Assembly: GCA_048213135.1 (NCBI GenBank)
Contig: PS015245.1
Location: 22,472-86,471 of the forward strand
From: Reclinomonas americana ATCC 50394
Lineage: Eukaryota
Direction: 5' to 3'
DNA: 64,000 nucleotides
Shown here: piece after piece, positions 19,319-46,000 of the stretch
Layout: each line of letters opens with the position of its first letter
How positions within the stretch are numbered: position 1 is the first letter of the stretch
Made by a program: the position numbers and the translations under genes
The notes under the pieces: model-generated
Told to the model about the DNA's origin: nothing
The model's database searches: none
What the model saw: only the letters and a program-made list of their open reading frames with translations

Positions 19319-22300
19319 ATGGCCTCTCGTCCTCCTCCTCCACCACGCCCTCACTCAACAACAACAACAACCCCTTCGCTGCCAATGTCTGCCTCTCCTC
19401 CGTGCGACGATGAGAAAGCAGACAAGATGCTCGTCGACAGCAAGCAGCATGTGCCGATGACGATGATGATGATGCATTCCTCCTCTCCATCCATCAACAG
19501 CNNNNNNNNNNNNNNNNNNNNNNNNNNNNNNNNNNNNNNNNNNNNNNNNNNNNNNNNNNNNNNNNNNNNNNNNNNNNNNNNNNNNNNNNNNNNNNNNNNN
19601 NNNNNNNNNNNNNNNNNNNNNNNNNNNNNNNNNNNNNNNNNNNNNNNNNNNNNNNNNNNNNNNNNNNNNNNNNNNNNNNNNNNNNNNNNNNNNNNNNNNN
19701 NNNNNNNNNNNNNNNNNNNNNNNNNNNNNNNNNNNNNNNNNNNNNNNNNNNNNNNNNNNNNNNNNNNNNNNNNNNNNNNNNNNNNNNNNNNNNNNNNNNN
19801 NNNNNNNNNNNNNNNNNNNNNNNNNNNNNNNNNNNNNNNNNNNNNNNNNNNNNNNNNNNNNNNNNNNNNNNNNNNNNNNNNNNNNNNNNNNNNNNNNNNN
19901 NNNNNNNNNNNNNNNNNNNNNNNNNNNNNNNNNNNNNNNNNNNNNNNNNNNNNNNNNNNNNNNNNNNNNNNTTCTTCTTCTTCTTCTTCTTCTTCTTCTT
20001 CTTTCTCCTCATGGATTGTCGTTGCTTCATTCCCCGTTGCAGAACTAGCTGGCATCTTGAAATACAAGAAGAAGAAGAAACACACCGACGAGAGCACAGC
20101 CGCCATTGCCGCTGCGAGAAGTGTCGCGGAGAATCGCACTGACCAGGGTGTGCATCTCTCCCATCCCTCCTGTCACTGTCTTTGATGTCCTCGCGTCACG
20201 TGTCGTCTCACCGTTGTGGTGTATGCACGCAGCTGCTCACGAGGAGCACATGGAACAAACTGGGATGGAGGGCATCGTCGAGGTACACTGATTGTGTGTT
20301 ATCCCAAGATAAGCATGCCTCTCACTGGCCTTCTCTTTCTTTTGATTGATTGCACAGCAACGTGCAAGGAGGCGGCGAGTCGACTCGTCTCTGGTGGATC
20401 ACAGTGAGGACTCGCCTGCACGTGACTCAGTCGAGACATCAGCCCGCAAGCGTTCTCTGGAGGTGAGCTCCGATGATGTCACGCGACTCAACTTGCCTCT
20501 TTCTCTTGCATCGCAGTTGACACCTGATGTTTTCTCTTCGTTCTCCACAGGTGGATGCATCCAGCGATGACGAGCTTGCACCGCCAAAGAAGAAGATGAA
20601 TAAGGTGTGGATTATGCCATTGTCATGGTTCTGCTAATTCATCGATCTGCATTTGGTTCTCTTGCGTCATCGTGGATTCACAGGGTGGCAAGACTCGAGT
20701 TGAGAAAGAGCCAGAAGGGTGGAGCGCCAACGAGAAGCTGTTGCTGAACAAGCTGCTTGTTGAGTGTGCATTCTCTCTGTCATCATTGCAACCCGCATCG
20801 CTCCTCCTTCTCCTCATCTCTTCATGTGTCTCTCGCAGCGGTGCAATCGGAAGAGGATAATGGTGAAGGCATTCGGGCTGATGGCACCCATTGTTCGGCC
20901 ATCCACAGTCATCCACCATCAGAGTGCTATCTTTGAGCTGGCCTGTGACGACTGTGAGATTCCGTTGTCGGAACGGAGTCGCACGTCGTCTGCAGTCAAG
21001 TGTGCATTTGGCAAGAAGCTTGGTAATACTGCCCGTAATTCGCGCATTGGAGCATACAAGTCAGTGGCGGGTGTGCTTCAGAGCGTGGGCAACTACATCG
21101 AGGTGAGCTAGCATATGCACGAGACGGTCGTGGCATCTTGAGCCAACATGCAGATGATTGCAATGTGCAGATGAGCCAACTCAGTGGCGCGGCCCTGGTG
21201 GATGCTGTTGAGAGACCACTGATTGTGGTGGATGAGCGTGGGTATTCGGAGGTCAGCTCTGTTGCATGATCTTCAGTGCCTTTTGTGATCATGTCTATTG
21301 ATGTTCATTCACTCTGTTTGAATGTGACAGGAGTGGTGGGAGTATTTGCGCCCGTCAAGCAAGACTCAGAAAGACCACCTTCGGCCGTTTGTCAAGCAGG
21401 CCGTGGATGCGTTGCGCGAGTGTGATGGTCTCATGGCCGCTCTGCTTCGAGACTGCCACCTCTCCGAGTCCGAGATGTCACGTGCGGTGACGTGGTACCA
21501 ATCGAAAGGTCTGCGATCTCAAGTGGTAGTTGCTGTTGCTTGCATTGGTGTTGATCAGCACCACACAGAATCTGGCGATGTGAAGATGGTGGTGAAGGAG
21601 GAGAAGGAGGTGGAAGAAGAGAAGGATGCTGTCAAGCTTGAAGACGATGACACCAAGGTACGCGGCAATAGTGCATGAGTAAGAGAGGCTTGTAGCGAAT
21701 GTGCGAGTCTCGGTCAAGCGTTAATCTCTTGTGTTCACAGGTGAATGCAAGCAGTGACGATGGCGAAGAATCGAAGCCGAGAAAGGTAGATTATACAATG
21801 TCTGTGTATGGGTGGTGAGGCACGTGCTGATTGTGCCGTGGTGTGCGTATTTGCAGCGCGTCAAGTGCGGTCGCCATGCGTTCGATGCGGAGATGAGCAA
21901 GGACGAGCGAATGGTGTTGGACAGACTGCTTGTTGCGTGTCGTGTGCATGTCCACAGCACCTTACCAAGGCTGAGTGACTTATTCTTCCGTGTACATGCT
22001 TGTCGTAACACTTGTTGCATTGTGTATGTGGACAGCGATGCAACAAGAGGAAGATACTGGTGATTGCATACGGCATCATGGCACCTATTCTGAAGGGAAA
22101 CGCCGTCCTCTATCATCAGCGCGTTCTCGCTGAACTCGCCTGTAAGGAGTGTGGCATCCCTTCATCAGGAGCTGGCTCTCCGTCTTTCGCAGCCATGGAA
22201 TCATTCGGCAAGAGCCTTGGTTTATTCGCCCAACATTCACGCACCAACACACCCAAATCAGTTGCAGGAGTGCTCCAGAGCATGAGTAAGCTCATCGAGG

Positions 22301-26021: not shown

Positions 26022-27230
26022 AGCAAGAAATTCACAGTGGTGGTGATGGAGAAGGTGCTTGATGTGGAGAGCAAGACATTGCTGAGGATGGACTGTGGCA
26101 TACCTGCATCGGTGCGTGCTAAAGAGTGGGAATGAGGGGCAGCCGGACGGATGAGTGAGAGAGGGAGAAAGGTTTCACTGGTCTGGCAACACATGCATGT
26201 TGCTTGTGAGATATTGATGGAGGTTGTCGGGGAAGAAGAAGACAAAAGCAGAATCACGGTGCACCGAGAGGGACACTGCTTGATTGAGAAGTTGCCTTGT
26301 GTTGTGCGGGATGCACTCTGCATGAGAGTCTTGTCTTCATACTGCTGACTGCTGTTTTTGTTGTGGCAGGTGGAGGAGCTAGACGAGTGAAAAATGGTCG
26401 GAATTGGGGGCCATCATGGTATTGTTGGTGCAGCCGCCCCGGGGCATCCATTTGTATTCGTGGATGTTGCTCACTCTCAGCGACAACAAACACGAGAATG
26501 GCTGTCTTGTTGACCATACCCAGCCAGATTGGTAACCAACGACACGTGCTTCTTCTGTGTTCATGGTAGCGGCAGAGCAGCACATCGTTGGTGTATGATG
26601 GCCCACCACCGGCTGCGGGGTGGGAGGAACCCACCGTTAGATTGTTCAGGTGACTCGTGTTCATGTGGATCGATGTGGATCGAGCACAAGGAAGTGCTGC
26701 TTTGTTGGATCTGTGGATACTCCTGCACCTCTTATCGGCACCATCGCAGCGGGCGCGGTTGGAATGCAGACTCGATGACGATCAGGATTGTGGTTTTTCA
26801 GCTGCATCGCAATATGGTGACCTTCTCATTGTGTCTGTCTGAGGCTCTTCCTCGAGGTGATGCTGCCATGATGCAGCTGCCCACGTGCGCTGTTGTACCC
26901 TGTGTGGAGTTGTTGTTCAATATCATCTCAGCACCACCTTCCCCTGATCCATGTTCTCTCCAGAAGAGGTCCGAAAACAAAGAGACATGAATTGCTTGTC
27001 ATGGAGAACAATCGCAGTTGACGATGCACCCAAGATTGCCCTGTTCTCTGACACTCCTCTTCGTCCCCACCACACTCCTCCTCCGCTCTCCACATCACGA
27101 CTTGTCACCTTTTCATCTTGCTGTTCGGATCAACGAATCTTCATTGCCTCTTCTATTCTCTCTCTTATCTTCGTTTCTTGCATTACGCAGTGCGCGTGTG
27201 TGCGAGAAACAACAACCAAGACACACACAG

Positions 27231-27582
27231 ATGGCCTCTCAGCCTCCTCCTCCTCCTCCACGCCCTCACTCAACAACAACAGCAACAACTCCTTCGCTGT
27301 CAATGTCTGCCTCTGCTCCGTGCGACGATGAGCAAACAGACGTGATGCTCATCGACAGCAAGCAGCATGTGACGACGATGATGACGATGCATTCCTCCGC
27401 TCCCTCCATCAACATCAACGATGATGATGATGATGAGAAGAAGAAGAAGAGCGCATCGGGGTCGTCTGGTGTGCCTGCGATGGCGAGGCGACGAGTGCCT
27501 GCCTCCTCCTCTTNNNNNNNNNNNNNNNNNNNNNNNNNNNNNNNNNNNNNNNNNNNNNNNNNNNNNNNNNNNNNNNNNNNNN

Positions 27583-27678
<96 letters not shown>

Positions 27679-27889
27679 TCTTCTTCTCTCTCTCTCCTCC
27701 TCCCTCCTCCTCTCCTTCTTCTTCTTCTTGTTCTTCTTCTTCTCCTCATGGATTGCCGTTGTTTCATTCTCTGTTGCAGAACCAGCTGGCTTCTTGAAAT
27801 ACAAGGAGAAGAAGAAGCACACCGACGAGAGCACAGCCGCCATTGCCGCTGCCCGATGTGACGCGGAGAATCTCGCTGCGCAAGGTGCG

Positions 27890-27920
<31 letters not shown>

Positions 27921-30900
27921 CTGTCTTTGGTGTTCTCGCGTTACGTAATGTCTCACCTGGGCGGTGCATGCACACAGCTGCTCACCAGGAGCGCGTGGAA
28001 CACACGGCGATGGAAGGCATCGTCGAGGTACAGTGACTGTGTGTCATTCCGAGATGAGCGTGTCTCTCAGCAATCTCTCTCTCTCTCTCTCTTGGTATGA
28101 TTGCACAGCAACGTGCGAGGAGGCGGCGAGTCGACTCGTCTCTGGTGGATCACAGTGAAGACTTGCCTGCACGTGACTCAGTTGAGACATCAGCCCGCAA
28201 GCGTTCTCTGGAGGTGAGCTCCAATAAGACACGCGTCTCAACTTGCCTCTCGCTTGTGCATCGCAGTTGACACCTGATGTTGCCTCCATTCTCTGCAGGT
28301 GGATGCATCCGATGATGACGAGCTGGCACCGCCAAAGAAGAAGAAGAAGGTTTGGGTTCTCTGACATTGACATTTTTGTGCTTATTCATCGATCTGCACA
28401 TGGGCTCTTGTGTCAATGCTGCATGTTGTGGGTTCACAGCGTGGCAAGGGTCAAACTGCGAAGAAGCCAGAAGAGTTGAGCGCAGACGAGAAGCTGCTGC
28501 TGAGCAAGCTGCTCGTTGCGTGTGCTTGCCCTCTCTTCATCTAGTCAACCTAGCGCACTCCTCCTTCTCCTCATCTCTTAATGTGTCACTCGCAGCGATG
28601 CAATCGGAAGAGGATTCTGCTGAAGGCATTTGGCCTGATGGCATCGATTGTTCATGAATCCACAGTCATCCACCATCAGAGTGTCCTCTTTGAGCTGGCC
28701 TGTGACGACTGTGGGATGTCGTTGTCGGAGCCGGTTCAAATGTCGTCTGCTGTCAATTGTGCGTTTGGCAAGAGTCTTGGGTTGAGCGTCATGGGTTCAC
28801 GCGCCAAAACGCCAAAATCAGTGGAAGGTGTGCTCCAGCGAGTGAGCAACTACATAGAGGTGAGCAAGCGTGTGCCTGTGAACGACCGTGCCATGTTGAA
28901 CCATCGTGCACATGATTGCAATCTACAGATGAGCCTACTCAGTGGCGCGGCGCTGGTGGATGCTGTGGAGAGACCACTTATAAAAGTGGATGAGCGCGGT
29001 TATTCGGAGGTGAGTTTGTGAAGCATGATTTTCTGCGTGTGTTGCGATCATATCGACTAATCTTCGTTCACTCGGCTTGCTTGTGACAGGAATCGTGGGA
29101 GAGACTTGCACCAAACAGCAAAGCTAAGAAAGACAATCTTCAGCCGTTTGTCAAGCAGGCCATGGATGCGTTGCGCGAGTGCAATGGTCTCATGACTGCT
29201 CTGCTTCGAGACAGTCGCCTCTCTGAGGCCAGGATATCACGCGCCGTCGCTTGGTGCCATGCGAAAGGTCTGCGATCTCAAGTGGCAGTTAGTGTTGCTT
29301 GCATTGGTATTGACCAGCACCACACAGAATCTGGCGATGTGAAGATGGCGGTGAAGGAGGAGAAGGGGGTGGAAGAAGAGAAGGATGCCGTCAAGCTTGA
29401 AGACTATGGCATCAAGGTACGCGGCAAGAGTACATGAGTAACGTAGGCTTTGTGGGACTGTGCGAGTCTTCATCGACTCGGTCAAGCGTTGATGCCTTGT
29501 GTGTCCGCAGGTGGAGGCCGGCAGTGACGATGGAGAAGAATCGAAGCCGAGAAAGGTAGATGATACAATGTCTGTGTATGGTTGGTGAGGCACGTGTTGA
29601 TTGTGCCGTGGTGTGCGTATTTGCAGCGCGTCAAGTGCGGTCGCCATGTGTTCGATGCGGAGATGAGCAAGGACGAGCGAATGGTGTTGGACAGACTGCT
29701 TGTTGCGTGTGCGTGTCCCACGATATCTCAGCAAGACAGATTGATTGCAATCTGCCATGTGCTCGCTTGCTGTCACACCTTATGTATGCGTGTGTATGTG
29801 GACAGCGATGCAACAAGAGGAAGATACTGGTGATGGCATACGGCATCATGGCACCTGTTGTGAAGCCGTTCGCGGTCTCACACCATCTGCGCGTTCTCGT
29901 TGAACTCGCATGCAAGGAGTGTGAGATCCCTTTTTCTGGAGCTGGCTCTCCGTCTACCTCAGTCATGGACTCATTCGGCAAGGCTCTTGGCAACGTCGTC
30001 CAACATGCACGCATCAAGACGACCAAGTCCGCTGAAGGAGTGCTCCAGAGCATGAGCGAGTTCATCGAGGTGAGTATCTGTCTGTTCTGTCCATATCCCA
30101 CATAACTGGAAAGTGATCCAACATCGCTGCATAATGCAACGGTGTAGAAGAGCGAACTGCGCGGCTCCGCTCTGGCGGATGCCATCGAGAGACCACTGAT
30201 TGTGGTGGATGAACGTGGTTATTCTGAGGTGCGCCAACTTTTCACTGTGCGCTTTTTGTACTTCTGCTTTGAGTTGTTGACTTACATGCTTCTTCCACGA
30301 TGTCGGTCGTGCTGTAGGAGTCATGGAAGACGGTGGCGAGAAAAGGGAGGAGCATGGACCGTCTCCTGCCGCTCGTCTCCCAAGCCGCGCAGGCCCTTCG
30401 CGAGTGTCCTGGCTTGCAAATGTCGTTGATTCGAGACGGCTGTCTCTCCGAGGCAGAGATCGCACGGGCCGTCGAGTGGTGCGCCGAAAGAGGTTTGGTG
30501 GCTTAGGGTACGTCCTACCGTGCTTGGGGTCAGAACTGACAAGTGAGATACAGCTCTGCTGGAGGCGAAGGTGCTGAAAAAAGAAGAGATGAAAGAGGAG
30601 GAGGAAGAACAGGAGGATGATTCGAGTGACGAGAGGGAAGAAGATGAGGACGAAGACATGGACGAAGGTAGCGAGAGCAAGGTACGACGTGGCGGTTGTG
30701 CGCACTGTGACAGCATCTCATGATGTGTGTCCGCAGCGACGAGGGAGTGTTTCTGCGTCAATGAGCAAGAACGAGCAACTGTTGCTGGCAAGGCTTCTTG
30801 TTGCGTGTGTTTCCATTTGTGTCCTTCTCTGGCAGTCATCTGGCTGATTGAGTGTTTATCGCATCGCCCATGTGATGCAGTGCTGCAACAAGAGGAAGAT

Positions 30901-33860
30901 ATTGGTGAAGGCCTTCGGCATCATGGCACCGACCGTGATGAGATCCACAGTCCGCCATCATCAGCGTGTTCTTGTTGACTTGGCATGCAAGGAGTGTGGC
31001 GTCCCTCCATCGAAAGCAGGCTGCCTTTCGTCGGCAGTTGTGAGCTCATTTGGCAAGATATTTGTCAGTGTCGTCCATCATGCACGCACCGAGACGCCCA
31101 AGTCTGTTGAGGGAGTACTTCAGATGTTGAGCGACTTTGTCGAGGTGAGCAGCGTCCATATCACTAATCGAGCCACCGCTTAAGTATGTATCGCAATGCA
31201 GAAGAGTGAACTGCGTGGCGCTGCCCTGACGGACGCCATTGAGAGACCTCTGGTTGTGGTGGATGAACGTGGCCATTCTGAGGTGTGGCTGCCCTGTTGT
31301 GTGTACGTTGTATATGTCGTGGATGGTGTTTTCTCACATTCTGTGCTCTGGAATTCGGTTGTCAGGAGTCATCACAACTGCCAGGGATGCCGCACAGCAG
31401 GCTGAGTCCCTTTCTGCCATATGTCACGCAGGCTGTGGATGCCTTCCATAACTGCCCAAGCCTGCTGTCCACACTTCTTCGAGACGGCTGTCTGTCCGAG
31501 GCGGAGATTGCGCGTTCCGTCGAGTGGTGCAGTGCACGAGGTTCGGCTGTGTGACCTGCATGGCTGCACTTTGTGCGCATATGCTCAACAACGACTGAAC
31601 AGCTCTGAGGGAGATGGGGATGGCAAAGAAAGGGGAGAAGCGGGAGGAAGAGCTGGAGGATGAGGACGATGGCAAGGTACGTCGCTCGTTTCCGTTAGAT
31701 GCGAGACAGGTGCGTGTCCTAACTCTGTCGTGATTGCCCTCCACAGCGCCGCAAGAGTGGATCTGCGAAGTTGAGCGTCAACGAGCAACTAATGCTGGCG
31801 AAACTGCTTGTTGCGTGTTTCTGTTAAACTCTCTGCATGTCGCCGACAATGCTGTCACTCCCATCTGCTCACCTTCGCCTTGGAGTAGGGCTGCAACAAG
31901 AAGAGGATGCTGGTGAAAGCATTCGGCCTCATGGCACCCGTGGTGCTGAAATCCACAGTCCTCCATCATCAGCGTGCTCTCTTCCAACTTGCCTGTGACG
32001 AATGCGGAATACCGACGAAGGGACCAGGCAGCCCGTCATCCGCAGTCACGTCTGCTTTTGGCAAGAGTCTTGCCAGGAGTGCCAAAACGGCACGCTGCGC
32101 GACGCCCAAGTCGGTGGAGGGTGTGCTGAAGAGTGTGAGCAACTTTGTGGAGGTGAGTGTGTCGGTGTGCTGCTTCAGTATCCTTCCGATTGTTATGTGT
32201 GTGGTCCCTGACTCGACTTCGACGTGGATGTCACCATCAGAAGAGTGGTCTTCGGGGAGCGGAGCTTGTGAATGCTGTCGAGAGACCACTGATTGTGATT
32301 GACGAGCGTGGCTACTCTGAGGTGCGTGTGAAATTGTGTGTGCTGATGTGCGTCATTGAAAGCTGGCTCACATTGGATGGTAGGAGTTTGCAAAGTCGCA
32401 GAAGCGAGGCGCTTCACATGTTTGTCTGCCATTCACCACACAAGCCAGGCAGGCTCTGCACAACTGTCCGAGCCTGTTGGCCACTCTGCTTCGAGACGGC
32501 TGCCTTTCGCAGGCGGAGATTGCACGTGCCGTCGAGTGGTGCAGTGAAAGAGGTTTGGCTGCCTGACTCTCATTGCTGCACAGTGCATGCATGTGCTGAC
32601 AAGCAAGTGACCAGTCGTCAGGGAGATGGAGATGGTGAAGAAAGAGGAGGAGAGGGAGGGTGAGCAGGTAGATGGTGACGGCAGCGACATGTACAATGGG
32701 GACGATGACGCGAAGGGAAAGAAGGTACGCCCGACGCTGCATTCTTCGTGATGCGAGGGGTACATCTTAATACTGCGTGGCTTGTGTTTCACAGCGCAGA
32801 AAGATTGATTCTGCGAATTCAAGCATCAGCGAGCAATTGATGCTGGCGAGATTGCTTGTTGCGTGTTCTTTGTATCGCCGGCATTGCTGTCATAAACTCC
32901 TCACTTTCATCCACCCGTCTATCTCTCGAGAGCAGAGGTGCAACAAGAAGAGGATACTGGTGAAGGCTTTCGGCTTCATGGCATCTGTGGTGATGAGATC
33001 CACAGTCTTGCATCATCAGCGCCTTCTCTTCCAACTTGCCTGTGACGAATGCGGCATGCCGTCGGAGGGACCGGGCTGCCCTTCAGCCGCAGTCATGTCT
33101 GCATTTGGCAAGAGTCTTGCCAAGAGTGCCACAGGGACACGCAGCAAGACGCTGAAGTCAGTGGAGGGTGTGCTCGAGAGCGTGAGCAACTTTGTGGAGG
33201 TGAGTGTCGGTGTGGTGTTTCAAAATAGGCGTGGTACCTGACTCGACTTCGACGTGCATGTCACCATCAGAAGAGTGGTCTTCAGCGAGCTGAATTGGTG
33301 GATGCTGTCGACAGACCGCTGATTGTGATCGATGAATGTGGGCACTCAGAGGCACGTGGACAACGGTTTTGTACGCTGGTGCTCCGATGATGTTGACTCT
33401 CTTTGTTGTCTCGCGGGTGACAGGAATCAGACAAGTTGCGGAAGAACAACCATCCAAGTGTTCTTCTGCCATTCGTCACGCAGGCCATGCTTGTGCTCCG
33501 CACCTGCCCTGGCTTGCTGGCCACGCTGCTTCGAAATGGTTGCCTTTCGAAGGCGGAGATTGAGCGTGCTGGCCATGGTGAATGAGCCCCTGCTGTTATT
33601 GCATGATAGCTTGTCAGCATCAGCACTGACAAGTGATGCAGTGCTGGCCATGGGTGACGAGAAGCCGGTGAAGTTGGAGGTGGTGAAGAAAGGGGAGGAG
33701 GAGGAGGAGGAGGAGGAGGAGGAGGAGGAGGAGGAGGAGGAGGAGGAGGAGGAGGAGGAGGAGGAGGAGGAGGAGGAGGAGGAGGAGGAGGAGGAGGAGG
33801 AGGAGGAGGAGGAGGAGGAGGAGGAGGAGAGNNNNNNNNNNNNNNNNNNNNNNNNNNNNN
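27231..33860 (+). CDS. Uncharacterised 5-module repeat protein, paralog 2
   Basis: Same exon structure. Core exons at 28596, 29806, 30881, 31889 and 32936; NLS-like APPKKKKK (28299-28349). A C-terminal poly-Glu runs into a gap that probably contains the stop. Confidence 0.8.
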
Positions 33861-35024
33861 CAGAGTGCGGGGATGGAGAAGGTGCTTGATGTGGAGAGCA
33901 AGACACTGCTGTTGATGGACTGTGGCATGCCTGCATTGGTGAGTTGCGAGGGGGTGGGAGTGAGTGACTGTGGGAGGGATGAGTGAGAGAGAGAGAAAGG
34001 TTTCACTTGGCAGGCAACACATGCATGTTGTTTGTGAGATATTGATGGAGCTTGTCGTGGAAGAAGAAGACAAAAGCAGAATCACAGTGCACCAAGAGGG
34101 ACACCGCTTGATTGAGAAGTTGCCTTGTGTTGTGCGGGATGCACTCTGCATGAGAGTCTTGTCTTCATACTGCTGACTGCTGTTTTTGTTGTGGCAGGTG
34201 GAGGAGCAAGACGAATGAAAAATGGTTGGAAATCGGGGCCATCATGGTATTGTGGGTGCAGCCGCCCCCGGGCATCCATTGGCATTCGTGTGCGTTGCTC
34301 ACTCTCAGCAACAACAAACACGAGAATGGCTGTCTTGTTGACCAAGTCCAGCCAGATTGGTAACCAACGACACGTGCTTCTTCTGTGTTCATGGCAGCGG
34401 CAGAGCAGCACATCGTTGGTGCATGATGGCCCACCAGCAGCTGCGGGGACGGGAGTGTTAGATTGTGCAGGTGACTCGTGTTCTTGGTGATTCGATGTGG
34501 ATGAGCAGAAGGAAGTGCTGCTTTGTGGATACTCCTGCACCTGCACTTGACACCATCTCAACGGGTGCGCTTGGAATGCAGTTTCGATGACGAGCAGGAT
34601 TGTGGTGCTCAGCTGCATCGCCGAGATCGAGACCTTCTCAATGTGTCTGTCTGCGGCTCTTCCTCGGTGTCCATCGAGGTGATGCTGCCCTGATGCAGCT
34701 GCTCACGGGCGCTGTTGTACCCTGTGTGGAGTTGTCGTCCATCATCATCTCAGCACCAGCTTCCCCTGATCCATGTTCTCTCCATGAGAGGTCCGAAACA
34801 AAGAGACATGCATGTGTTGCTCGTGGAGAACAATCGCAGTTGACGATGCACCCAAGATTGCCCAGTTCCTCCTTCCCCTTTTCCCCTAACACTCATCCTC
34901 TTTCGCCCCTCACATCACGACTTGTCACCTTATCATCTTGCTGTTCGGATCAACGAATCTTCATTGCTCTCACTCTTCGTTTCTTGCATCACGCAGTGCG
35001 AAACAACAACAGAGACACACACAA

Positions 35025-35369
35025 ATGGCCTCTCAACCTCCTCCTCTTCCTCCTCCTCCACGCCCTCACTCAACAACAACAACAACTCCTTCTCTGCCAA
35101 TGTCTGCCTCTTCTCCGTGCGACGACGAGAAAGCAGACATGATGCTCATCGACAGCAAGCAGCATGTGACGACGATGATGACGATGATGCATTCCTCCTC
35201 TTCCTCCATCAACAGCAACGATGATGATGAGATGAAGAAGAAGAGCGCATTGGGGTCGTCTGCTCATCGTGGTGTGCCTGCGATGGCGAGGCGACGAGTG
35301 CCTGCCTCCTCTTCTTCTTCTTCCTCTTCTTCCACCGNNNNNNNNNNNNNNNNNNNNGGTGGCGTCGTC

Positions 35370-35409
<40 letters not shown>

Positions 35410-38400
35410 TTTCCCTCTTGCTGTCTTTGATGTCCTCGCGTCACGTAATGTCTCACCTGAGCGGTGCATACACACAGCTGCTCACCAGGAGCACATGGAA
35501 CACACAGCGATGGAAGGCATCGTCGAGGTACCCTGATTGTGTGCCATCCCAAGATAAGCATGCCTCTCACTGGCCTTCTCTTTCTGGAAAGATCGCACAG
35601 CAACGTGCGAGGGGACAGCGAGTCGACTCGTCTCCGATGGATCACAGTGAGGACTTGCGTGCACGTGACTCAGATAAGACATCGTCCCGCAAGCGCATTC
35701 TGGAGGTGAGCTCCGACGAGACACGCGTCTCAACTTGCCTCTCGTTCGTGCATCGCAGTTGACACCTGATGTTTTCTCTTCGTTCTCCACAGGTGGATGC
35801 ATCCAGCGAGGACGAGCTTGCGCCCCCACAGAAGAAGAAGAAGGTGTGGATATTTTGTCGCTGACATCGTTGTGCTTTTCATCAATCTGCATGTGGGCTC
35901 TTGTGTCAATCATGCATGCTGTGGATTCACAGCGCGGCAAGACTCGAGCTGCGAAAGAGCCAGTGGAGTTGAGCGCAGAAGAGAAGCTGCTGCTGAACAA
36001 GCTGCTTGTTGCGTGTTTATTCTCTCTGTCGTCGTTGCAACCTGGCTCACTCCTCCTTCTCCTCATCTCTCTATGTGTCTCTCGCAGCGGTGCAATCGGA
36101 AGAGGATCCTGGTGAAGGCATTCGGGTTAATGGCACCCTTTGTTCAGAAATCCACAGTCATTCACCATCAGAATGCTATCTTTGAGCTGGCCTGTGACGA
36201 ATGCGGAATTCCGTTGTCGGAGCGGAGTCGCACGTCGTCTGCTGTCAAGTGTGCATTTGGCAAGAAGCTTGGTTATACTGCCAATGCTTCACGCCACTCA
36301 ATGCCCAAGTCAGTTGAGGGCGTGCTCCGGCGAGTGAGTAACTACATCGAGGTGAGGAAGCATGTGTGCCTGTGAATGACCGTGGCGTGTGAACCGACAT
36401 GCAAATGATTGCAATCCTGCAGATGAGCCAACTCAGTGTCGCGGCTCTGGTGGATGCTGTGGGGAGTCCACTCATTGTGGTGGATGAGCGTGGGTATTCG
36501 AAAGTGTGTTTGTGATGCATGATTTTCTGCTTGTGTTGTGATCATGTCGACTAGTCTCCGTTCACTCGGCTTGCTTGTGACAGGAATCGTGGGAGAAACT
36601 GGCACCACTGCACAAGACCAAGAAAGACAAGCTTCAGTCGTTTGTCAAGCAGGCCATGGATGCGTTGCGCGAGTGCAATGGTCTCATGACTGCTCTGCTT
36701 CGAGACAGTCGCCTCTCTGAGGCCGTGATATCACGCGCCGTCGCATGGTGCCATGCGAAAGGTCTGCGACCTCAAGTGGCAGTTAGTGTTGCACTGGTGT
36801 TGATCAGCACCACGCAGAATCTGGCGATGTGAAGATGATGGTGAAGGAGGAGAAGGAGGTGGAAGAAGAAAATGATGCCGTCAAGCTTGAACACGATGAC
36901 ACCAAGGTACGCAGCAATAGTGCATGAGTAAGGGAGGCTTTGTGGGACTGTGCGTGTCTTCATCGACTCGGTCAAGCGTTGATGCCTTGTGTGTCCGCAG
37001 GTGGAGACCGGCAGTGACAGTGACGAAGAATCGAAGCCGAGGAAGGTAAGACGATGCTAATGTCTGTGTGGTTGGTGCGGCAGATATGTTGATTGTGTTG
37101 TTGCATGGGTGTGCGCATTTGCAGCGGGTCAAGAGTGGTCGCCATGCGTTCGATGCGGAGATGAGCAAGGACGAACGAATGGTGTTGGACAGACTGCTTG
37201 TTGCGTGTCATGTGCATGTCCACAGCACCTTACCAAGGCTGAGTGATTGATTCTTCCGTGTGCTTGCCTTTCATAACACCTGCTTCGTGCGTGTGTGTAT
37301 GATCAGCGGTGCAACAAGAAAAAGATACTGGTGATGGCATTCGGCATCATGGCGCCTGTTGTGATGCGATCTGCAGTCTGGCATCATCAGCGAGTTCTTT
37401 TTGAACTCGCCTGCAAGGAGTGTGGCATTCCTTCATCAGGAGCTGGTAGCCCGTCGCCTGCAGCCATGTACGCATTCAGCAAGAGCCTTGGTTTATTCGT
37501 CCAACATTCACGCACCGAAACGCCCAAGTCTGTTGAGGGAGTACTTCAGAGCATGAGCAAGTTCATCGAGGTGAGTATCTGTCTGTTCTGTCCATCTCAC
37601 ACATACCTGGAAGTAAGCCAACAACGATGCGTGTGCAACTGCACAGAAGAGTGCACTGCGCGGTGCTGCTCTGGCAGATGCCATTAAGAGACCACTGATT
37701 GTGGTGGATGAACGTGGCCATTCTGAGGTGCGCCAACTTTTCCCTGTGTGCTTCGTGTATTTTTGCTTTTTGAGTTGTTGACTTACGTGCTTCTTCCACG
37801 ATGTCGGTCGTGCTGTAGGAGTCGTGGAAGATGATGGAGAGGAAACGGAAGAGCAACGACCGTCTCCTGCCGCTCGTCTCCCAAGCCGCGCAGGCGCTAC
37901 GGGAGTGTCCTGGCTTGCAAACGTCGTTGATTCGAGACGGCTGTCTCTCGGAGGCGGAGATCGCACTGGCCGTCGAGTGGTGCGCCGAAAGAGGTTTGGT
38001 GGCATCGGATGCGTTCTACTGTGCATTCTCAGGACTGACAAGTGAGATGCAGCTCTGCTGGAGGCGAAGGTGATGAAAAAAGAAGAGATGAAGGAGGAGG
38101 AGGAAGAACAGGAGGATGATTCGAGTGACGAGAGGGAAGAAGATGAGGACGAGGACATGGGCGATGGTGAAAGGAGCAAGGTACGACCATGTTTGGTGGG
38201 GCGGCTGTGCACACTGTGACAGCATCTCATGATGTGTGTCCACAGCGACGAGAGAGTGGTTCTGCAATGATGAGCAAGGACGAACAGCTATTGCTAGCAA
38301 GGCTTCTTGTTGCGTGTGTTTGCATTTATGTCCTTCTGTGGCAGTCGTCTAGCTGATTGTGTTTTCATCGCACCACCCATGTGATTCATGGGAGAGCAGT

Positions 38401-41290
38401 GCTGCAACAAAGAGAAGATATTGGTGAATGCGTTCGGCATCATGGCACCGACCGTGATGAGATCCACAGTCCGCCATCATCAGCGTGTTCTTCTTGACTT
38501 GGCATGCAAGGAGTGTGGCGTCCCTCCATCGAAAGCAGGCTGCCTTTCGGCGGCAGTTGTGAGCTCTTTCGGCAAGAGTCTTGCCAAGCTCGCCCAACAC
38601 GCACGTACCTCAACGCCCAAGTCTGTTGAGGGAGTCCTCCAGATGATGAGCGACTTTATCGAGGTGAGTATCGTCCATATTACTTGACTGAATCAATCAA
38701 CGGCCAGCTCTAAAGTATGTACCGCAATGCAGAAGAGTGAATTGCATGGCGCTACTCTGGCAGATGCCATTGAGAGACCTGTGGTTGTGGTGGATGAACG
38801 CGGCTATTCTGAGGTATGCCAGCCTTGCGCTCTGTGTACGTTGTATGTCGTGAATGGCGTTTTTCTCACATTCTGTGCTCTTGAATTCGGTTGTCAGGAG
38901 TCGTCGCGCTTGCCGAGGGCTTTGCACAACAAGCGGAATCCGCTTCTGCCATATGTCACACAGTCCGTGGATGCCTTCCACGACTGCCCAAGCCTGCTGG
39001 CCACTCTGCTCCGAGACGGATGTCTGTCCGAGTCGGAGATTGCGCGCGCCGCTGAGTGGTGCAGTGCACGAGGTTCGGCTGTGAGGATTCTTTGCTGCGC
39101 TTTGTGCGCATGTGCTCACCAACGACTGAACAGCTCGGAGGGAGATGGAGATGGTGAAGAAAGAGGAGAAGCGGGAGGGAGAGCAGAAGGATGAGGACGA
39201 TGGCAAGGTACGCCCGTCGCTCGTTTCCGGTAGATGCGAGACATGTGCGTGTCCTAACCCTGTGTGGATTGCCCTCCACAGCGCCGCAAGAGTGGTCCTG
39301 CGAAGTTGAGCATCAACGAACAATTGATGCTGGCGAAACTGCTTGTTGCGTGTTGCTGCTATCTCTGTGCATGTTTCCAGCACTGCTGTCACTCCCATCT
39401 GCTCACCACATCTTGAAGCAGGGCTGCAATAAGAAGAGGATGGTGGTGAAGGCATTTGGCCTCATGGCACCCATTGTGCTCAGATCCACAGTCCTCTGTC
39501 ATCAGCGTGCTCTCCTCCAACTTGCCTGTGACGAATACGGAATACCGTCGGAGGGACTAGGCTGCCCTTCAGCCGCAGTCATGTCTGCATTTGGCAAGAG
39601 TCTTGCCAAGAGTGCCAAAACGGCACGCACCACAACGCCCAAGTCAGTAGAGGGCGTGCTCGAGAACATGAGCAGCTTCATAGAGGTGAGTGTCGGTGTG
39701 TTGTTTCAGTGTCCTTCCGATCGTCACGTGCGTGGCACCTGACTCGACTTCGACGTGGATGTCGCCATCAGAGGAGTGGTCTTCGGGGAGCTGAGCTGGT
39801 GGATGTTGTCGAGAGACCGATGATTGTGATTGACGAGCGTGGCTACTCTGAGGTGCGTGTGAAATTGTGTGTGCTGATGTGCGTCATTGACAGATGGCTC
39901 ACATTGCTGTGGCTCGGATGGTAGGAATCAACAGCAAAATCGCAGAAGGGAGGCGCTCCTAATTTTCTTTTGCCGTTCGTTACCCAGGCCAGGCAGGCAC
40001 TCCGCAGCTGTCCAGACCTACTGGCCACTCTGCTGCGGGACGGCTGCCTTTCGCAGGCGGAGATTGCACGCGCCGTCGAGTGGTGCAGTGAAAGAGGTCT
40101 GGCTGCTTGGCTTCGTGATTGGATAATGCATGTACTCACAAGCAAGTGAACAGTCGTGAGGGAATTGGATGTGGTGAAGAAAGAGAAGGAGAGGGAGGGT
40201 GAGCAGGAAGAAGATGATGATGCCGGCGACAATGAGGTTGATGACGCGAGCTCTCTCTTCAGTGAGATGCGAGAAGTACGTCTTAATACTGCGTGGCTTG
40301 TGTTTCACAGCGCCGCAAGATTGATCCTGCAAAGTTGAACATCAACGAGCAATTGATGCTGGCGAGATTGCTTGTTGCGTGTTTCTCTGCATGCCGCCAC
40401 TGATGCTGTCATAACCTGCTCACTTTCATCCACCCATCCATCTCTCGAGAGCAGAGGTGCAACAAGAAGAGGATATCGGTGAAGGCTTTTGGCTTCATGG
40501 CACCTGTGGCCATGGCATCCACAGTCTTGCATCATCAGCGCGTTCTCTTCCAACTTGCCTGTGACGAATGCGAAATACCGACGAAGGGACCGGGCTGCCC
40601 TTCAGCCGCAATCTTGTCTGCATTTGGAAAGAGTCTTGCCAATAGTGCCCGAGATACACGCAGTACGACGCCCAAGTCAGTGGAGGGTGTTCTCGAGAAC
40701 GTGAGCAACTTCATCGAGGTGAGCGTCGGTGTGGTGTTTCTATGTCACATCTGCGGCAACTGACCTACCTTCCATAATGTGCATGTGGGTGGAATCATTA
40801 GAAGAGCGGACTTCGCGGAGCTGAACTGGTGGATGTGGTCGAGAGACCACTGATTGTCATTGACGAGCGTGGCTACTCTGAGGCATGTGGACCGTCGTGG
40901 TTTTGTGCTGTGGAGCTTCGGTGATTGGTGACTCAGCTTTCTCGTTTCGTGTGACAGGAGTCAGCAACGCTGACGCACAAAAATGGTACTCCGAATGTTC
41001 TTCTGCCATTAGTCACGCAGGCCATGCATGTGCTCCGCACCTGTCCTGGCCTGCTGACCACTCTGCTTCGAGACGGTTGTCTTTCGAAGGCGGATATATC
41101 ACGTGCCGGTGAGTTTTCGGAATGCAACAATCTGAGAGCAACTGGTGTTGTTGCTCGTCGTGCCTGCATCAGTACTGACAAGCATGATACAGTGCTGGGT
41201 GACGAGAAACCGGTGAAGGTGGAGCTGATAAAGAAAGAGGAGGAGGAGGAGGAGGAGGATGAACAGGAAGACGAGGAGGAGGACATGTAG
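35025..41290 (+). CDS. Uncharacterised 5-module repeat protein, paralog 3
   Basis: Same exon structure. Core exons at 36088, 37307, 38400, 39422 and 40455; APPQKKKK (35793-35843). Stop TAG at 41288-41290. Confidence 0.8.
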
Positions 41291-41358
41291 AGCCAGAAAT
41301 TCAGAGTGGTGGTGATGGAGAAGGAGCTTGATGTGGAGAGGAAGACATTGCTGTGGAT

Positions 41359-42266
41359 GCGCCTCCTTTTTCAGGGACACTGCCTTCCTCTTCTCCTCTT
41401 CCTCCTGCGGTGATTATGGTGCCTCCGCCGCGGCCGACGGGCTTTCACCGCGTAAAGTTGGAGGCGTGTGTTCAATATCGATTTCTTGCATGCTGCAGTT
41501 TGCTCTCATTGTGCCATTACTATCACCAATGATCTTCTACACTTTGTTTTCTCAATGCCGTTCTCGCTGCGTTGCACACCAGTGTAACACACCTTCAAAA
41601 CACGACAAAACGAACGAAATTGCATGAGTGTCACGTGTCACCAATCACTTTACCAGACACCAACAACAATGAGCGCGACCACTCCCTCTGCGCCTCCTTC
41701 TTCAGGGACACTGCCTTCCTCTTCTCCTCTTCCTCCTGCGGTGATTATGGTGCCTCCGCCGCGGCCGACGGGCTTTCACCGCGTAAAGTTGGAGGCGTGC
41801 AATATCGCTGCGATGTCTTGCACGCAGCACGTTATCATTTGCCATTACTATCACCAATGATCTTCTACACTAGCTTCCACAATGCCATTCTCGCTGCACA
41901 CCAGATACACCTTCAAAACACGACAAAGCAAACGAAATTGCATGAGGAGTGTCACGTGTCACCAATCATCACTTTACCAGACACCAACAACAATGAGCGC
42001 GACCACTCCCTCTGCGCCTCCTTCTTCAGGGACACTGCCTTCCTCTTCTCCTCTTCCTCCTCTTCCTTCGTCTGCGGTGATTATGGTGCCTCCGCCGCGG
42101 CCGACGGGCTTTCACCGCGTAAAGTTAGAGGCGTGTGTTCAATTGCAATATCGATGTCTTGCATGCAGCAGTTTGCTCTCATTGTGCCATTACTATCACC
42201 AATGATCTTCTACACTTTGCTTTTCACAATGCCGTTATCGCTGCGTTGCACACCAGTGTAATACAA
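41359..42266. repeat. ~325 bp tandem repeat (3 copies, first one 5'-truncated) abutting the right end of the gene array
   Basis: gcgcctcctt.ttcagggacactgccttcctcttctcc...ggtgattatggtgcctccgccgcggccgacgggctttcaccgcgtaaagtt recurs at about 41359, 41690 and 42014, and continues into a gap. Confidence 0.9.
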
Positions 42267-43058: not shown

Positions 43059-46000
43059 TCAGTACGGATGCTCATATGTGCCTGGCGGCGGGTAGGCGGC
43101 TGGCGCATACTGGCCATACACCGGCTGCGGCACATACATGCCAGGAGCTGTCACCGACAAAAACACCGGAGTGACGAGTGAGCAACTACTTCTGGGTTGC
43201 GCACATAAAGGTAAAGCCAGCGACGCAAAACTCACCAACATGCTGTGGCGGCATGGAGGACGGTGGCGGCGGAGGCACAACTTGCGGTGACCCGAGATGA
43301 GGGTGGTATGGATTCGGCGCGTGCGACAGAGTCGGCATGGCGTAGGCCGAGTAACCGGGGTGCGGAGACACGGGCGACGCAGCGTAGCCAGGCGACGGCA
43401 TCGAGTGCTGACTGAGTACATGATGATGCGCCGGGGCGTTGCCGTAGTGCGCGCTCTGCGGTGCCGGCGACAGTTGCTGCTGCTGCTGCTGCTGTTGTTG
43501 TTGTTGCTGCTGTTGCTGTTGCGAGGCCGACATGTGTCGATGGGAGGGCGCGCTGTCGGAGATGCCCGACTGGTGATTGCCGTGGTGTCGCTCTCGTCTG
43601 GTTCGGTGATGAGCACGCACACACACACACACACGTACAGACCACATAAGTACACACACATACACACCGATCCGAATGGCCACCGCCACTGCCACCACTG
43701 TGCTGCTGCCGGTGGTAGCCACCACCGCGTCCACCACCACCGCCACCACCACCACCACCTCCGCCATGGTGTCGCTCGCCACCTCCACCATGGTGACGAT
43801 CACCGCCACTGCCTCCTCCGCCACCACCACCACCACCGCCGCCGCCGACGGCAGATGCCTTGCGGTTGAGCTTGTTCTCAATCTTCTTGCCGTAGGGCGT
43901 GTTGCGCACGAGGTGCAGCAGTGGTCGGATCTTTTCTTGCAGCAACATGAACTGCTGGTTGTCGGCCACCGCAATGCCGGTCTGAATAACATAGTTGCCG
44001 AAGGAGTCCTGCAGCAGTCGCGGCAGTGCGTCGTCGCCGACCACTTCACCAAACACCAGATCGCGCACATTGTTGCCGCCTTGACGCAGGCACTGCGCAA
44101 GCGAAAGAAAAAAAAGACAATGCGAGTCAGGCAGCAGCAACAAAACACGCGCGCACACACACACGCACACACCTTTTCCACTACATTCGAGCTGAACTTG
44201 TTGATGCACAGATCCGCAATGTGCCCAGCGAACTTGGAGACAACTTGATACGTGATGGTGTCACTCTCCAAATCCAGCACGTACTGCACCACGTAGTTGC
44301 CAAACGGGTCTTGCACGAGGGTTAGCGAGTGAGCGGCGATTTCGTGCACCAGCTCCACCTGTCGATGCATCCATCACACGCGGTGTGAGCTAGACAATGA
44401 ACATGACCACCACATGCCGACCTCTCACACGCAACTCGCTGCGCCTCCGACGCAAAATCAATGCATCTCTGCATCACACAGCAGCCGTGACGGTGCGTGG
44501 CCACATCGACGCACCGATCCACCACCGCGTCGTAGATGAACTGCTTCTCGAGCGAGCTCAGGCGATGCAGGCAGCGCTGAATCACGTGATTGCCGTTGAG
44601 ATCCTTGATGAGGTCCACCACGTGGTCGCGCAGCGCCTCCACAATCAGGTGCACCTGGAAAGGCGTGCTCAGGCACTCAATGAGCTTCTGAACGGCGCGC
44701 GTGCCGTGCATGTCTGAGGGAGGGAGAAAGTGAGGAAATGCACATCACAATTGGACAGTGTGTGTGTGTGTGACGGCAACGCAACTCAGCGAAATCTCGT
44801 ACAAGTGGTTCTTCACGCACTCGACAATCTGCGAACGCTGCTCATCCGAGCAAAACTCCACCAACTTCTGGCACAGGTAGTTGCCAAACGGATCCATCAT
44901 CAGCTCCACCAGATCGCCTCCAATTTCGTTCAAGATGAGCAGCACGTTGACTTCGGCGTTCTCCTCAATCTTCTTTTGCAGGAAGCGGCAACCGTACTGG
45001 TCCTTGCACAGGTCGTAGATCTGACCCTGGATTTCGCTCATGTCCTGCACACGCGATAGTGCCTCGGCCAGCTCACTCGAACTCGCCGAGCGGCGCATCC
45101 CCACACCGCCAATCGGCAGCGGTGACGAGTCCGCACTGTCCGACACCGACGGCTGTCGACGAAGGCCGGGCGAGTGATGCTGGTGCGGTGGTGGCGGGCC
45201 AGCTGGCGTGTGGCCCATGCTCATTGCTGCACCGTGTCCCATGTGCCGCTGCGGTGCCGGCGAGACCACGTGCGGGTGTTGCGGTGACGGCATCATGGGT
45301 GCAGGTGACTGCGCCAACTGCTGCGGCTGCGCAAGTGGCGGCTGTTGGTGTTGCTGCTGCTGTTGTTGCTGTTGCTGCGGTTGAGGAGACGCTTGCTGGT
45401 AGTGCTGCGGCTGATTGGCGTAATGCATCGCGTGTGGCCCGGCAGGTGACTGGAACGACTGGTATGCGGGGCCGCCAGAAAAGTCTGCACCCAACACTTG
45501 TGTGTGAGAAAAACACATGAAGATGTGTGAGGATGCTCAGCATGAGCGCGCACCTTGCGGAACCGGTGACGTCGTGTACTGCCCGCTGTACGCCGAGAGC
45601 GAGTGCTGGGGAGAGGCGGCGTGCTGCTGCGCGTGGTGTGCCGGAAGGTGGTATGGCGACGCGGCTTGCGGTGACGGTTGAGGCGACGGCCAACCGCCAT
45701 TCGGCACCGGCTGTAGCGTGAGGTTGCCCATCTGCTGATGCATCTGTTGTTGCTGTTGCTGGTGGTGTTGTTGCTGCTGATAGCTCGATGGTGTCTGCGG
45801 CTGTGACATGGGCGGAGGAGTCGCTGGCGGAGTAATGACAGGCGTGCGTCCCGCCGAGTGACGCCCACCACGTGCCGAGCTCGGCTCACTGGAGCTCATC
45901 CGCATGCCCATGTGCGTGGTGGCCTCGTCGAGTGACAACGACGACAGGGCACCGACCAACTGTGCACCTCCACCACCGCCGCCACCACCGCCACCGCCAC

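Follow-up and report, generated by a model that had tools for sequence, protein, structure and literature searches.

A candidate diversified helix face on the conserved, gene-converted modules of three tandem paralogues

TALE repeats are bacterial modules of 33-35 residues, near-identical apart from two variable residues, and host restriction or immune factors of the TRIM5alpha type carry rapidly evolving surface patches. For PRDM9, passages of two published reports describe accelerated evolution and positive selection at the DNA-recognition positions (PMC2779102, PMC3890296). The window analysed here, a stretch of 64,000 nucleotides, contains three tandem intron-rich eukaryotic genes, named A, B and C, all on the + strand and each with five modules. 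Gene A extends from a putative ATG to the stop that closes its last exon (19319..26021) and includes an N gap in its 5' part (19502-19971). Gene B (27231..33585) begins at a putative ATG and finishes at the in-frame stop that comes first after module 5, and gene C (35025..41290) runs from a putative ATG to its stop. An adjoining Pumilio gene most closely resembles its fungal and unicellular-opisthokont counterparts.

Each module occupies about 1.05-1.2 kb of genomic DNA (repeat period 1008-1219 nt) and is made of four exons, a to d, which together give about 200 aligned codons. Profiles of the four exons each found exactly 15 matches in the window, all within genes A-C, the next-best match having an E-value of 0.07 or worse. 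The data set consisted of 15 module sequences from one genome, with an exon model predicted from genomic DNA. Exon b is 264 nt long (88 codons) in all 15 copies, each bordered by AG on its 5' side and by GT on its 3' side, and these copies align over 88 columns with zero indels, which bore out the original prediction that the exon lacks them. The predicted span was likewise recovered, from 20839, where the first exon b begins, to 40718, where the last one finishes.

In gene A, exon b was located at 20839..21102 (module A1), 22036..22299 (A2), 23117..23380 (A3), 24137..24400 (A4) and 25177..25440 (A5); its residues 63-73 correspond to 21025-21057, 22222-22254, 23303-23335, 24323-24355 and 25363-25395, respectively. 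In gene B, the exon lies at 28596..28859 (B1), 29806..30069 (B2), 30881..31144 (B3), 31889..32152 (B4) and 32936..33199 (B5), with residues 63-73 at 28782-28814, 29992-30024, 31067-31099, 32075-32107 and 33122-33154. The copies of gene C are found at 36088..36351 (C1), 37307..37570 (C2), 38400..38663 (C3), 39422..39685 (C4) and 40455..40718 (C5), and the same residues at 36274-36306, 37493-37525, 38586-38618, 39608-39640 and 40641-40673. All of these copies are on the + strand. Exon b identity between modules at different positions is about 45-57%. Conserved positions include Cys2, His27, Cys36 and Cys39, and Arg69 is invariant in 15/15 copies.

A variable segment had been claimed around an invariant Arg, and all 15 strings quoted for it were recovered exactly, as residues 63-73 of the exon. 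In the three paralogues these read NTARNSRIGAY, LSVMGSRAKTP and YTANASRHSMP for module 1; LFAQHSRTNTP, NVVQHARIKTT and LFVQHSRTETP for module 2; SVVESARGKTP, SVVHHARTETP and KLAQHARTSTP for module 3; SRACNTRNIAS, RSAKTARCATP and KSAKTARTTTP for module 4; and NSARDTRSTTP, KSATGTRSKTL and NSARDTRSTTP for module 5. The strings given for a second patch were also exact and correspond to residues 17-26 (20887-20916 in A1; PILKGNAVLY, PVVKPFAVSH and PVVMRSAVWH in module 2 of genes A, B and C), but its strong variability is found mainly in modules 1 and 2, and in module 3 only one of the ten residues differs. When the 15 same-position pairs were pooled, the nucleotide difference was 0.293 for residues 61-71, 0.198 for residues 17-26 and 0.134 for the rest of the exon; the corresponding amino-acid differences were 0.467, 0.30 and 0.184. 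The introns, described beforehand as very similar, are so in a relative sense only: divergence in the three introns next to the exons amounts to 9-24% (K 0.10-0.29). In the comparison with coding sequence that had been proposed, each of the four module exons showed a synonymous divergence of about 0.3.

Same-position modules are monophyletic (support 89-100 where given), and the five-module plan predates the triplication. Furthermore, the three possible A/B/C site patterns occur equally often (398, 421 and 398) and are arranged in blocks, with a longest run at or above the 99.9% permutation level in 3/3 gene pairs. Genes A, B and C thus form a gene-conversion mosaic, the copies having been shuffled since the triplication.

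Over the same period, the genes as a whole have been under purifying selection, with a pooled omega of 0.38 in exon a, 0.46 in exon b, 0.19 in exon c and 0.40 in exon d (dS 0.27-0.36). Site models were compared (nearly-neutral versus positive-selection) with our own codon-model implementation in place of PAML or HyPhy and with naive posteriors; each of the five A/B/C triplets was given a star tree, and the site classes were common to all five. This produced a class of codons with omega 3.5-4.8, which holds 3-4% of the total: exon b positions 21, 63, 66, 67, 70 and 71, and one exon d codon at module alignment column 150. For the 200-codon module, 2dlnL was 41.3 under standard assumptions (p 1e-9), 18.8 with gamma rate variation (p 8e-5), 12.6 with double and triple hits (p 0.0018) and 7.9 with multiple hits and rate variation together (p 0.019). 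A 15-taxon maximum-likelihood tree gave 37.3 (p 8e-9), the larger model having been halted at 40 iterations. Exon b alone gave 34.4 without rate variation (p 3e-8) and 4.8, which is not significant, with gamma rate variation (p 0.09). With multi-nucleotide terms, the fit of each model rose by 25-39 log units and the 2dlnL of 41.3 fell to 12.6. A site-wise dN/dS test of the kind suggested with the original prediction therefore does yield a class above 1, at a significance that weakens as the models become stricter. If diversifying selection is defined operationally by a likelihood-ratio test robust to rate variation and to multiple hits, it was detected with our own code in the module, and not in the 88-codon exon alone under gamma.

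All module-level runs gave P>0.5 for positions b21, b63, b66 and b71 and for column 150; b67 reached this level in the standard-module and 15-taxon-tree analyses, and b70 in the standard-module and multi-hit analyses. For residues 63-73 taken as a block, omega was 1.83 (p 1e-4 against 1), or 1.78 with a patch-specific rate (p 0.056). The second patch as a whole has an omega of 0.74, not different from 1, and of its residues only number 21 belongs to the selected class. The diversifying selection proposed for both patches is thus retained for the first, which appears to contain a site class with omega above 1 (positions 63, 66, 67, 70 and 71, more weakly under the stricter models), and is not supported for the second as a whole, which is only relaxed.

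The variable sites were then considered on a predicted structure. The AlphaFold2 (AF2) model of exon b alone is all-helical, with a helix at residues 51-71; its mean pLDDT is 70.6, with values of 71 and 57 across residues 61-80. Residues 63, 66, 67, 70 and 71 occupy positions i, i+3, i+4, i+7 and i+8 of the predicted helix around the invariant Arg69, so that the five selected codons flank this residue with the spacing of one alpha-helix face in the model. The helical moment of the per-site omega gave p 0.007 for residues 61-73, p 0.02 for residues 58-73 and p 0.10 over the whole helix 51-71. The mapping foreseen in the original prediction therefore puts these selected residues together on the same side of the helix in the model. 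A third variable stretch is formed by the first 19 or so residues of exon d (for example in module A2, 22551..22725, + strand); this stretch, which includes the selected column 150, is predicted to be disordered or flexible.

No relatives were found in Pfam, in 1.84 billion representative proteins, among PDB sequences and folds, or in metagenome and viral contigs, and the module appears, as far as such searches reach, to be a lineage-restricted domain without detectable relatives. A Pfam scan of five exon b reading frames returned 0 families. Zinc-finger families matched 0/15 exon b and 0/15 exon d copies, even at E-values up to 10, and the TALE, Myb and homeodomain models likewise had no match among these copies; the spacing of Cys2, His27, Cys36 and Cys39 differs from that of C2H2 fingers. 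Membership in the C2H2 family is not supported, given these zero matches and the wrong Cys/His spacing, nor is membership among TAL effector repeats, given the period of 1008-1219 nt, the four exons of about 200 codons and the lack of a Pfam match. Helix-turn-helix hints stayed below threshold: HTH_5 in 1/15 exon b copies (E 0.15), and HTH_24 (E 0.02) and HTH_AsnC (E 0.087) each in 2/15 exon d copies. Among the folds aligned with VIA-align, homeodomains reached Z 3.8-4.2 (rmsd 2.6-4.0 A over 51-69 residues), a range that the tool calls common. The best row was the saposin-like 3s64_A (Z 6.0, rmsd 3.2 A, 76 aligned residues, 9% identity), and this Z is below the tool's typical best value for models without true matches. 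The saposin-like fold has three conserved disulfides; exon b has three conserved Cys residues, versus six in that fold.

Exon b has a net charge of +2 to +9 and the modules a pI of 8.5-9.8; the modules are joined by acidic linkers, and the N-terminal exons show basic clusters when their translations are read by eye. In the same reading, no signal peptide or long hydrophobic stretch was seen. Each gene is predicted to encode a soluble protein whose five modules, each about 200 residues long, are basic, mainly helical and connected by acidic linkers.

On balance, we lean towards a joint reading, in which a helix-face binding surface has been diversified by selection on conserved modules against a gene-conversion background. 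The variable helix face would act as a putative binding surface whose specificity is driven to differ from paralogue to paralogue and from module to module, while the geometry and one common contact would be maintained by Arg69 and the buried face. A distinct possibility, to which we give clearly less credence, is that constraint was only relaxed: tolerant surface or loop positions would drift near the neutral rate, and omega above 1 would come from multi-nucleotide mutation, short tracts of ectopic conversion and a coalescence depth that varies along the mosaic. This agrees with the reality of the mosaic, with a patch-wide omega near 1-2 and not far above, with the value of 0.74 in the second patch, with the many sites near omega 1 in the predicted disordered start of exon d, and with the loss of significance of the exon-only test under rate variation. 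Multi-hit terms are strongly favoured and the signal shrinks with them; moreover, 58 of the 82 differing codon pairs at the seven sites differ at two or three bases, so that clustered mutation or short conversion tracts could contribute. The closest patch sequence comes from a different module position in 7/15 copies, which is compatible with ectopic conversion, the 39 nt compared being too short to say. However, the module test remains significant with both controls, and rate variation becomes unnecessary in the best-fitting model when a class above 1 is included (alpha 118-148). The local mutation rate at the patch is not raised, since dS is 0.285 in ten conserved codons within or adjoining it versus 0.32 elsewhere and its rate scalar is 1.03; the seven sites have a dN of about 0.92 versus a module-wide dS of 0.32. 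Fast and conserved sites also alternate helically, unlike the products of mutation or conversion tracts. If relaxed constraint and clustered mutation were nevertheless the cause, the locus would be a clean example of conversion and multi-nucleotide changes mimicking diversifying selection in tandem paralogues. That the copies are decaying duplicates or mis-annotated non-coding repeats is highly improbable: compared with A and C, the 3' tail of gene B does contain an in-frame stop and a change of frame (its acidic tail runs on in another frame as far as about 33889), exon models rest on genomic DNA and the searched databases hold zero homologues, but 60/60 module exons are open, omega is 0.19-0.46 at a dS of about 0.3, splice-site dinucleotides are intact in all exon b copies, and gap lengths in the A/B/C alignment are multiples of 3 in 5/5 exon gaps versus 7/45 intron gaps.

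Under the favoured reading of a selected binding surface, the partner could be nucleic acid or protein, with a slight preference for chromatin or nucleic acid in view of the basic modules, the acidic linkers and the basic clusters at the N-terminus. A sequence-specific nucleic-acid-binding array, functionally analogous to zinc fingers or TALEs, is unlikely in our estimation; the variable face of each module would read bases, Arg69 would contact the backbone and the five modules would form a composite site. The charge pattern, the apparent lack of a signal peptide or long hydrophobic stretch, the helical spacing around Arg69, the helix-turn-helix hints and the homeodomains among the weak fold matches are in line with such an array, against which stand the sub-threshold level of every family hint, a fold comparison within the common range and led by a saposin-like row, the failure of the zinc-finger, TALE, Myb and homeodomain models to match and the by-eye nature of the localisation signals. 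Equally doubtful is a programmable recognition array of an undescribed kind, with one specificity helix per module of about 200 residues and five modules per protein, whose residues 63, 66, 67, 70 and 71 would read a nucleic-acid or chromatin target. Paralogues homogenised by gene conversion would be driven apart at these residues by conflict with fast-changing targets, e.g. satellites, mobile elements, viruses or recombination motifs, as a functional counterpart of PRDM9/KRAB zinc-finger arrays on an unrelated fold. If the favoured reading of a selected surface holds, the five residues of the helix face and the two other selected sites would be a small set of candidates for a recognition code, for which the locus would offer 15 natural module variants.

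The description of the modules as zinc-finger- or TALE-like thus holds as an analogy only, given the lack of a family match and a module of about 200 residues versus about 30. As in TRIM5alpha-type factors, a short positively selected cluster is carried on a conserved domain, with tandem family expansion and gene conversion among copies; there is no homology, the organism is apparently unicellular or fungal-grade and the analogy is by pattern only. With TAL effector repeats the locus would share a fixed helical scaffold in tandem, with the proposed specificity in a few variable residues, but here the genes are interrupted by introns, exon b copies at different module positions are far from near-identical, and the variable residues number five or six within a span of nine positions. 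PRDM9/KRAB zinc-finger arrays differ in having 28-residue fingers encoded in one exon, instead of four-exon modules with acidic linkers, and in the C2H2 motif and Pfam zinc-finger match that are absent here; moreover, DNA binding is only putative here and the variation is among paralogues of one genome, not among alleles or species. Nevertheless, in both cases tandem modules within one protein show positive selection at a few helix-face positions while the remainder of the module is homogenised by concerted evolution or gene conversion, a pattern that is shared without being evidence of kinship. If this is correct, a rigid repeated scaffold with a few fast-evolving specificity residues and concerted evolution elsewhere would have been invented independently, and a familiar design would have been built on a domain without detectable relatives.

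Three head-to-tail copies of one gene (genes A, B and C) are found at about 19.3-41.3 kb on the + strand of the window, a eukaryotic draft sequence interrupted by 18 N runs. Successive copies are shifted by about 7.75 and 7.5 kb, their putative ATG codons lie at positions 19319, 27231 and 35025 (+ strand), respectively, and a Pro/Ser/Thr-rich N-terminus is common to all three. Each gene contains five modules (A1-A5, B1-B5 and C1-C5) spaced by 1008-1219 nt. Every module comprises an exon a of 63 or 75 nt, an exon b of 264 nt, an exon c of 81 nt and an exon d of about 170-178 nt ending in phase 1, and is followed by an acidic linker exon; its a-b, b-c and c-d introns measure 57-107 nt. When the window was scanned in all six frames, the profiles built from exons a-d gave exactly 15 matches each, all within the three genes, and the next best E value was 0.07 or worse. 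The predicted exon model is based on the open reading frame present in all 60 predicted module exons, on the AG before and the GT after exon b, kept in 15/15 copies, and on the gaps of the A/B/C alignment, whose lengths are a multiple of three in 5/5 cases in exons versus 7/45 in introns.

Some splice sites are atypical. A GC donor was observed in three of the 15 c-d introns (A4, B5 and C5; first bases 24568, 33352 and 40883), the paralogous introns having GT. The a-b intron has an unusual conserved start, GTTGCG, the donor being the GT three bases earlier or GC/GA; owing to these two candidate donors, one residue is uncertain at the a-b junction. At the 3' end of gene B (33424-33889), an in-frame stop closely follows the final conserved motif of module 5, there is a 15-nt gap relative to gene A, and the acidic tail carries on in another frame, which suggests an additional intron, truncation of the protein or a misassembly adjoining the N run at 33832-33860. 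A long (GAG)n tract without interruptions, which would be translated as poly-Glu, extends from 33690 to 33831 at this end and into the N gap; the acidic tails of genes A and C are much shorter than this (GAG)n-bearing end. In addition, (TC)n microsatellites adjoin N gaps in the presumed first intron of gene B (27583-27700) and of gene C (35358-35420).

Same-position modules were monophyletic, with bootstrap values of 89-100 in the four groups having a support value, and the five-module plan is thus older than the triplication. The relationship between A, B and C shifts from module to module and along the sequence: among 1289 variable ungapped columns, A and B agree in 398, A and C in 421 and B and C in 398, and all three differ in 72. 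These site patterns are blocky: in each of the three pairs, the longest run is at or above the 99.9% permutation level. This mosaic bears the signature of gene conversion or unequal exchange between the tandem copies. Pooled over exons a, b, c and d, dS was 0.27, 0.32, 0.35 and 0.36 and omega was 0.38, 0.46, 0.19 and 0.40, respectively. The low omega and the similar dS indicate that the genes are constrained and that exon b is no older than its neighbours. An escape of exon b from homogenisation, as in MHC peptide-binding exons, was also considered and dropped, the dS of this exon (0.32) being comparable to those of exons a, c and d (0.27-0.36).

The original prediction described hypervariable patches in an otherwise conserved exon b and proposed that they may form a recognition code under diversifying selection, in a pattern like that of zinc-finger or TALE specificity modules and of arms-race receptors. 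The observation itself is confirmed. Exon b is free of indels (88 codons in 15/15 copies), the 15 strings reported for the main patch were all retrieved exactly, as residues 63-73, and Arg69 is invariant, as are 18 further columns of the exon. The strings reported for the second patch correspond to residues 17-26 of module 2. When the 15 same-position pairs were pooled, the nucleotide and amino-acid differences were 0.293 and 0.467 for residues 61-71, 0.198 and 0.30 for residues 17-26, and 0.134 and 0.184 for the rest of exon b. The introns, said to be very similar, are so in a relative sense only, with differences of 9-24% (K 0.10-0.29) in those flanking the exons.

Over the 39 nt of residues 61-73, some modules have their nearest counterpart in the adjacent module of their own gene, B2 and B3 being 79% and C3 and C4 77% alike, although the flanks group by module position. 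This likeness could result from short intragenic conversion or from chance, 39 nt being too short to decide, and inter-module conversion as the source of the patch variants, suggestive for these two pairs, was dropped for that reason. A third variable stretch, absent from the original prediction, opens exon d in every module and covers about 19 codons (e.g. 22551-22607). Omega is close to 1 at many of its sites, one codon falls in the omega>1 class, and small in-frame indels occur between modules. In the model of exon d (mean pLDDT 79.6), the first dozen residues are disordered and are followed by three confident helices; given this predicted disorder, the variable start of the exon is probably a flexible segment.

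For the selection analysis, M1a (nearly-neutral) was compared with M2a (positive selection) in our own implementation of a codon model of the Goldman-Yang type with F3x4 frequencies. In view of the mosaic, the five A/B/C triplets were treated as five star trees with common site classes, which makes topology irrelevant. Excluded from the alignments were the exons encoding the N-terminus and the acidic linkers, as well as the module 5 tail past the last conserved motif; gaps were treated as missing data. For exon b only, 2dlnL was 34.4 (p = 3e-8), and 4.8 (p = 0.09) with gamma rate variation. For the 200 aligned codons of exons a-d, the corresponding values were 41.3 (p = 1e-9) and 18.8 (p = 8e-5). 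As multi-nucleotide changes are reported to give false inferences of selection (10.1101/165969; PMC10336034), double and triple changes were also allowed; 2dlnL was then 12.6 (p = 0.0018), and 7.9 (p = 0.019) when gamma was added. On a 15-taxon ML tree, 2dlnL was 37.3 (p = 8e-9), the larger model having been stopped at iteration 40.

The selected class had an omega of 3.5-4.8 and comprised 3-4% of codons. Exon b residues 21, 63, 66 and 71, together with column 150 of the module alignment, near the start of exon d, belonged to it in every module-level run; residue 67 exceeded P = 0.5 in the plain-module and 15-taxon-tree runs, and residue 70 in the plain-module and multi-hit runs. For residues 63-73 as a whole, omega was 1.83 (p = 1e-4 versus 1), and 1.78 with a patch-specific rate (rate 1.03, p = 0.056); for residues 61-71, it was 1.67 (p = 0.0015), and 2.33 with their own rate (p = 0.009). 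The ten conserved codons within or beside the main patch had a dS of 0.285, versus 0.32 for the rest of the module, and the seven fast codons a dN of about 0.92. A mutation hot spot is therefore unlikely, synonymous divergence and the rate scalar being normal.

An AlphaFold2 model of exon b, computed from the 15-row alignment of this single exon alone, was all-helical (mean pLDDT 70.6), with helices at residues 4-15, 21-26, 28-38, 43-46, 51-71 and 76-87. Residues 63, 66, 67, 70 and 71 follow an i, i+3, i+4, i+7, i+8 spacing, and the intervening positions 62, 65, 68, 69 and 72 are conserved. The helical moment of per-site omega peaked at 90-95 degrees, with permutation p values of 0.007 for residues 61-73, 0.02 for 58-73 and 0.10 for 51-71, and the resultant length of the five sites (0.68) was reached by 5% of all five-site subsets of the helix. 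This clustering of variable sites on one helix face had been put forward as a check of the code, and it is based on a predicted model of one exon with intermediate confidence.

The modules are basic (pI 8.5-9.8, with an exon b net charge of +2 to +9), the linkers between them are acidic, and basic clusters are visible by eye in the N-terminal exons. Inspection of the translations by eye revealed neither a signal peptide nor a long hydrophobic stretch. Together with the conserved Cys and His residues, these features suggest a soluble, possibly nuclear protein. In exon b, Cys2, His27 and Cys36 are found in every copy and Cys39 in 14/15, and a metal (zinc) site at these four positions is conceivable. 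Directly downstream of the acidic linker, the first residues of exon a are Arg-Arg-x-Ser in 6/6 copies of modules 3 and 4 (e.g. 22974, 23999, 30737, 31747, 38246 and 39282); module 5 opens with Arg/Leu-Arg-Lys-Ile instead. Arg-Arg-x-Ser is the textbook consensus of basophilic kinases, and it may be a regulatory phosphorylation site in the linkers.

No relative was detected by any sequence, profile, fold or contig search. Pfam searches with the exon reading frames and, at E up to 10, with each of the 15 exon b and 15 exon d copies gave sub-threshold rows only: HTH_5 in one of 15 exon b copies (E 0.15) and HTH_24 and HTH_AsnC in two of 15 exon d copies each, all at noise level. The exon b profile had no match at E<=0.001 among 1,835,955,588 representative proteins, and none of the 8000 candidates scored in a word-indexed search of 155-2000-residue proteins reached E<=0.01. 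PDB sequences gave no match at E<=10, the top ESM Atlas score (0.86) was under the level counted as more than a lead, and the best Foldseek E values against the PDB were 5.4 (exon b) and 4.6 (exon d). A wide VIA-align search with exon b gave a saposin-like protein on top (Z 6.0) and homeodomains at Z 3.8-4.2, all at noise level. Among metagenome and viral contigs, 106 and 31 pattern matches, respectively, were obtained and none was confirmed. Four peptide motifs of the family were absent from the searchable full text, the sole basis for regarding it as unpublished.

Two neighbouring features were observed downstream. A tandem unit of about 331-336 nt is present in three copies directly after gene C (41313-42260); two copies are 99-100% identical over about 100 nt, and the three copies were missed by Tandem Repeats Finder. 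On the minus strand (43186-46790) lies a gene of the Pumilio RNA-binding family that has poly-Gln tracts. A 127-residue piece of it had 369 matches at E<=1e-5; the best matches listed, 39-63% identical, include fungi, unicellular opisthokonts and plants. As none was near-identical, the proteins of this genome appear to be absent from the searched database.

Taken together, the recognition-code interpretation is partly supported. For the main patch, a real, helix-face-shaped excess of replacement changes survives the controls applied, though only at p of about 0.02 under the strictest of them, and diversifying selection of a putative binding surface is the reading to which we incline, on balance. 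Relaxed constraint combined with artefacts would explain the same variability differently and is possible, if rather doubtful. It agrees with the second patch, also proposed as diversifying, for which omega was 0.74, indistinguishable from 1, and which is merely relaxed, and with the fast sites of the main patch, where 58 of the 82 differing codon pairs differ at two or three bases. At these seven sites, the effects of repeated selection, of clustered mutation and of short conversion tracts are separable only in part; the multi-hit and gamma controls and the helical arrangement speak against the relaxed-constraint explanation. Non-functional sequence is very improbable: the open exons, in-frame gaps and low omega speak against it.

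The specific proposal that the modules form an array reading nucleic acids seems improbable. The basic modules and the possible nuclear location would fit it, and the helix-turn-helix and homeodomain matches stayed at noise level. The likeness to zinc fingers and TALEs drawn in the original prediction is one of pattern and does not amount to membership.
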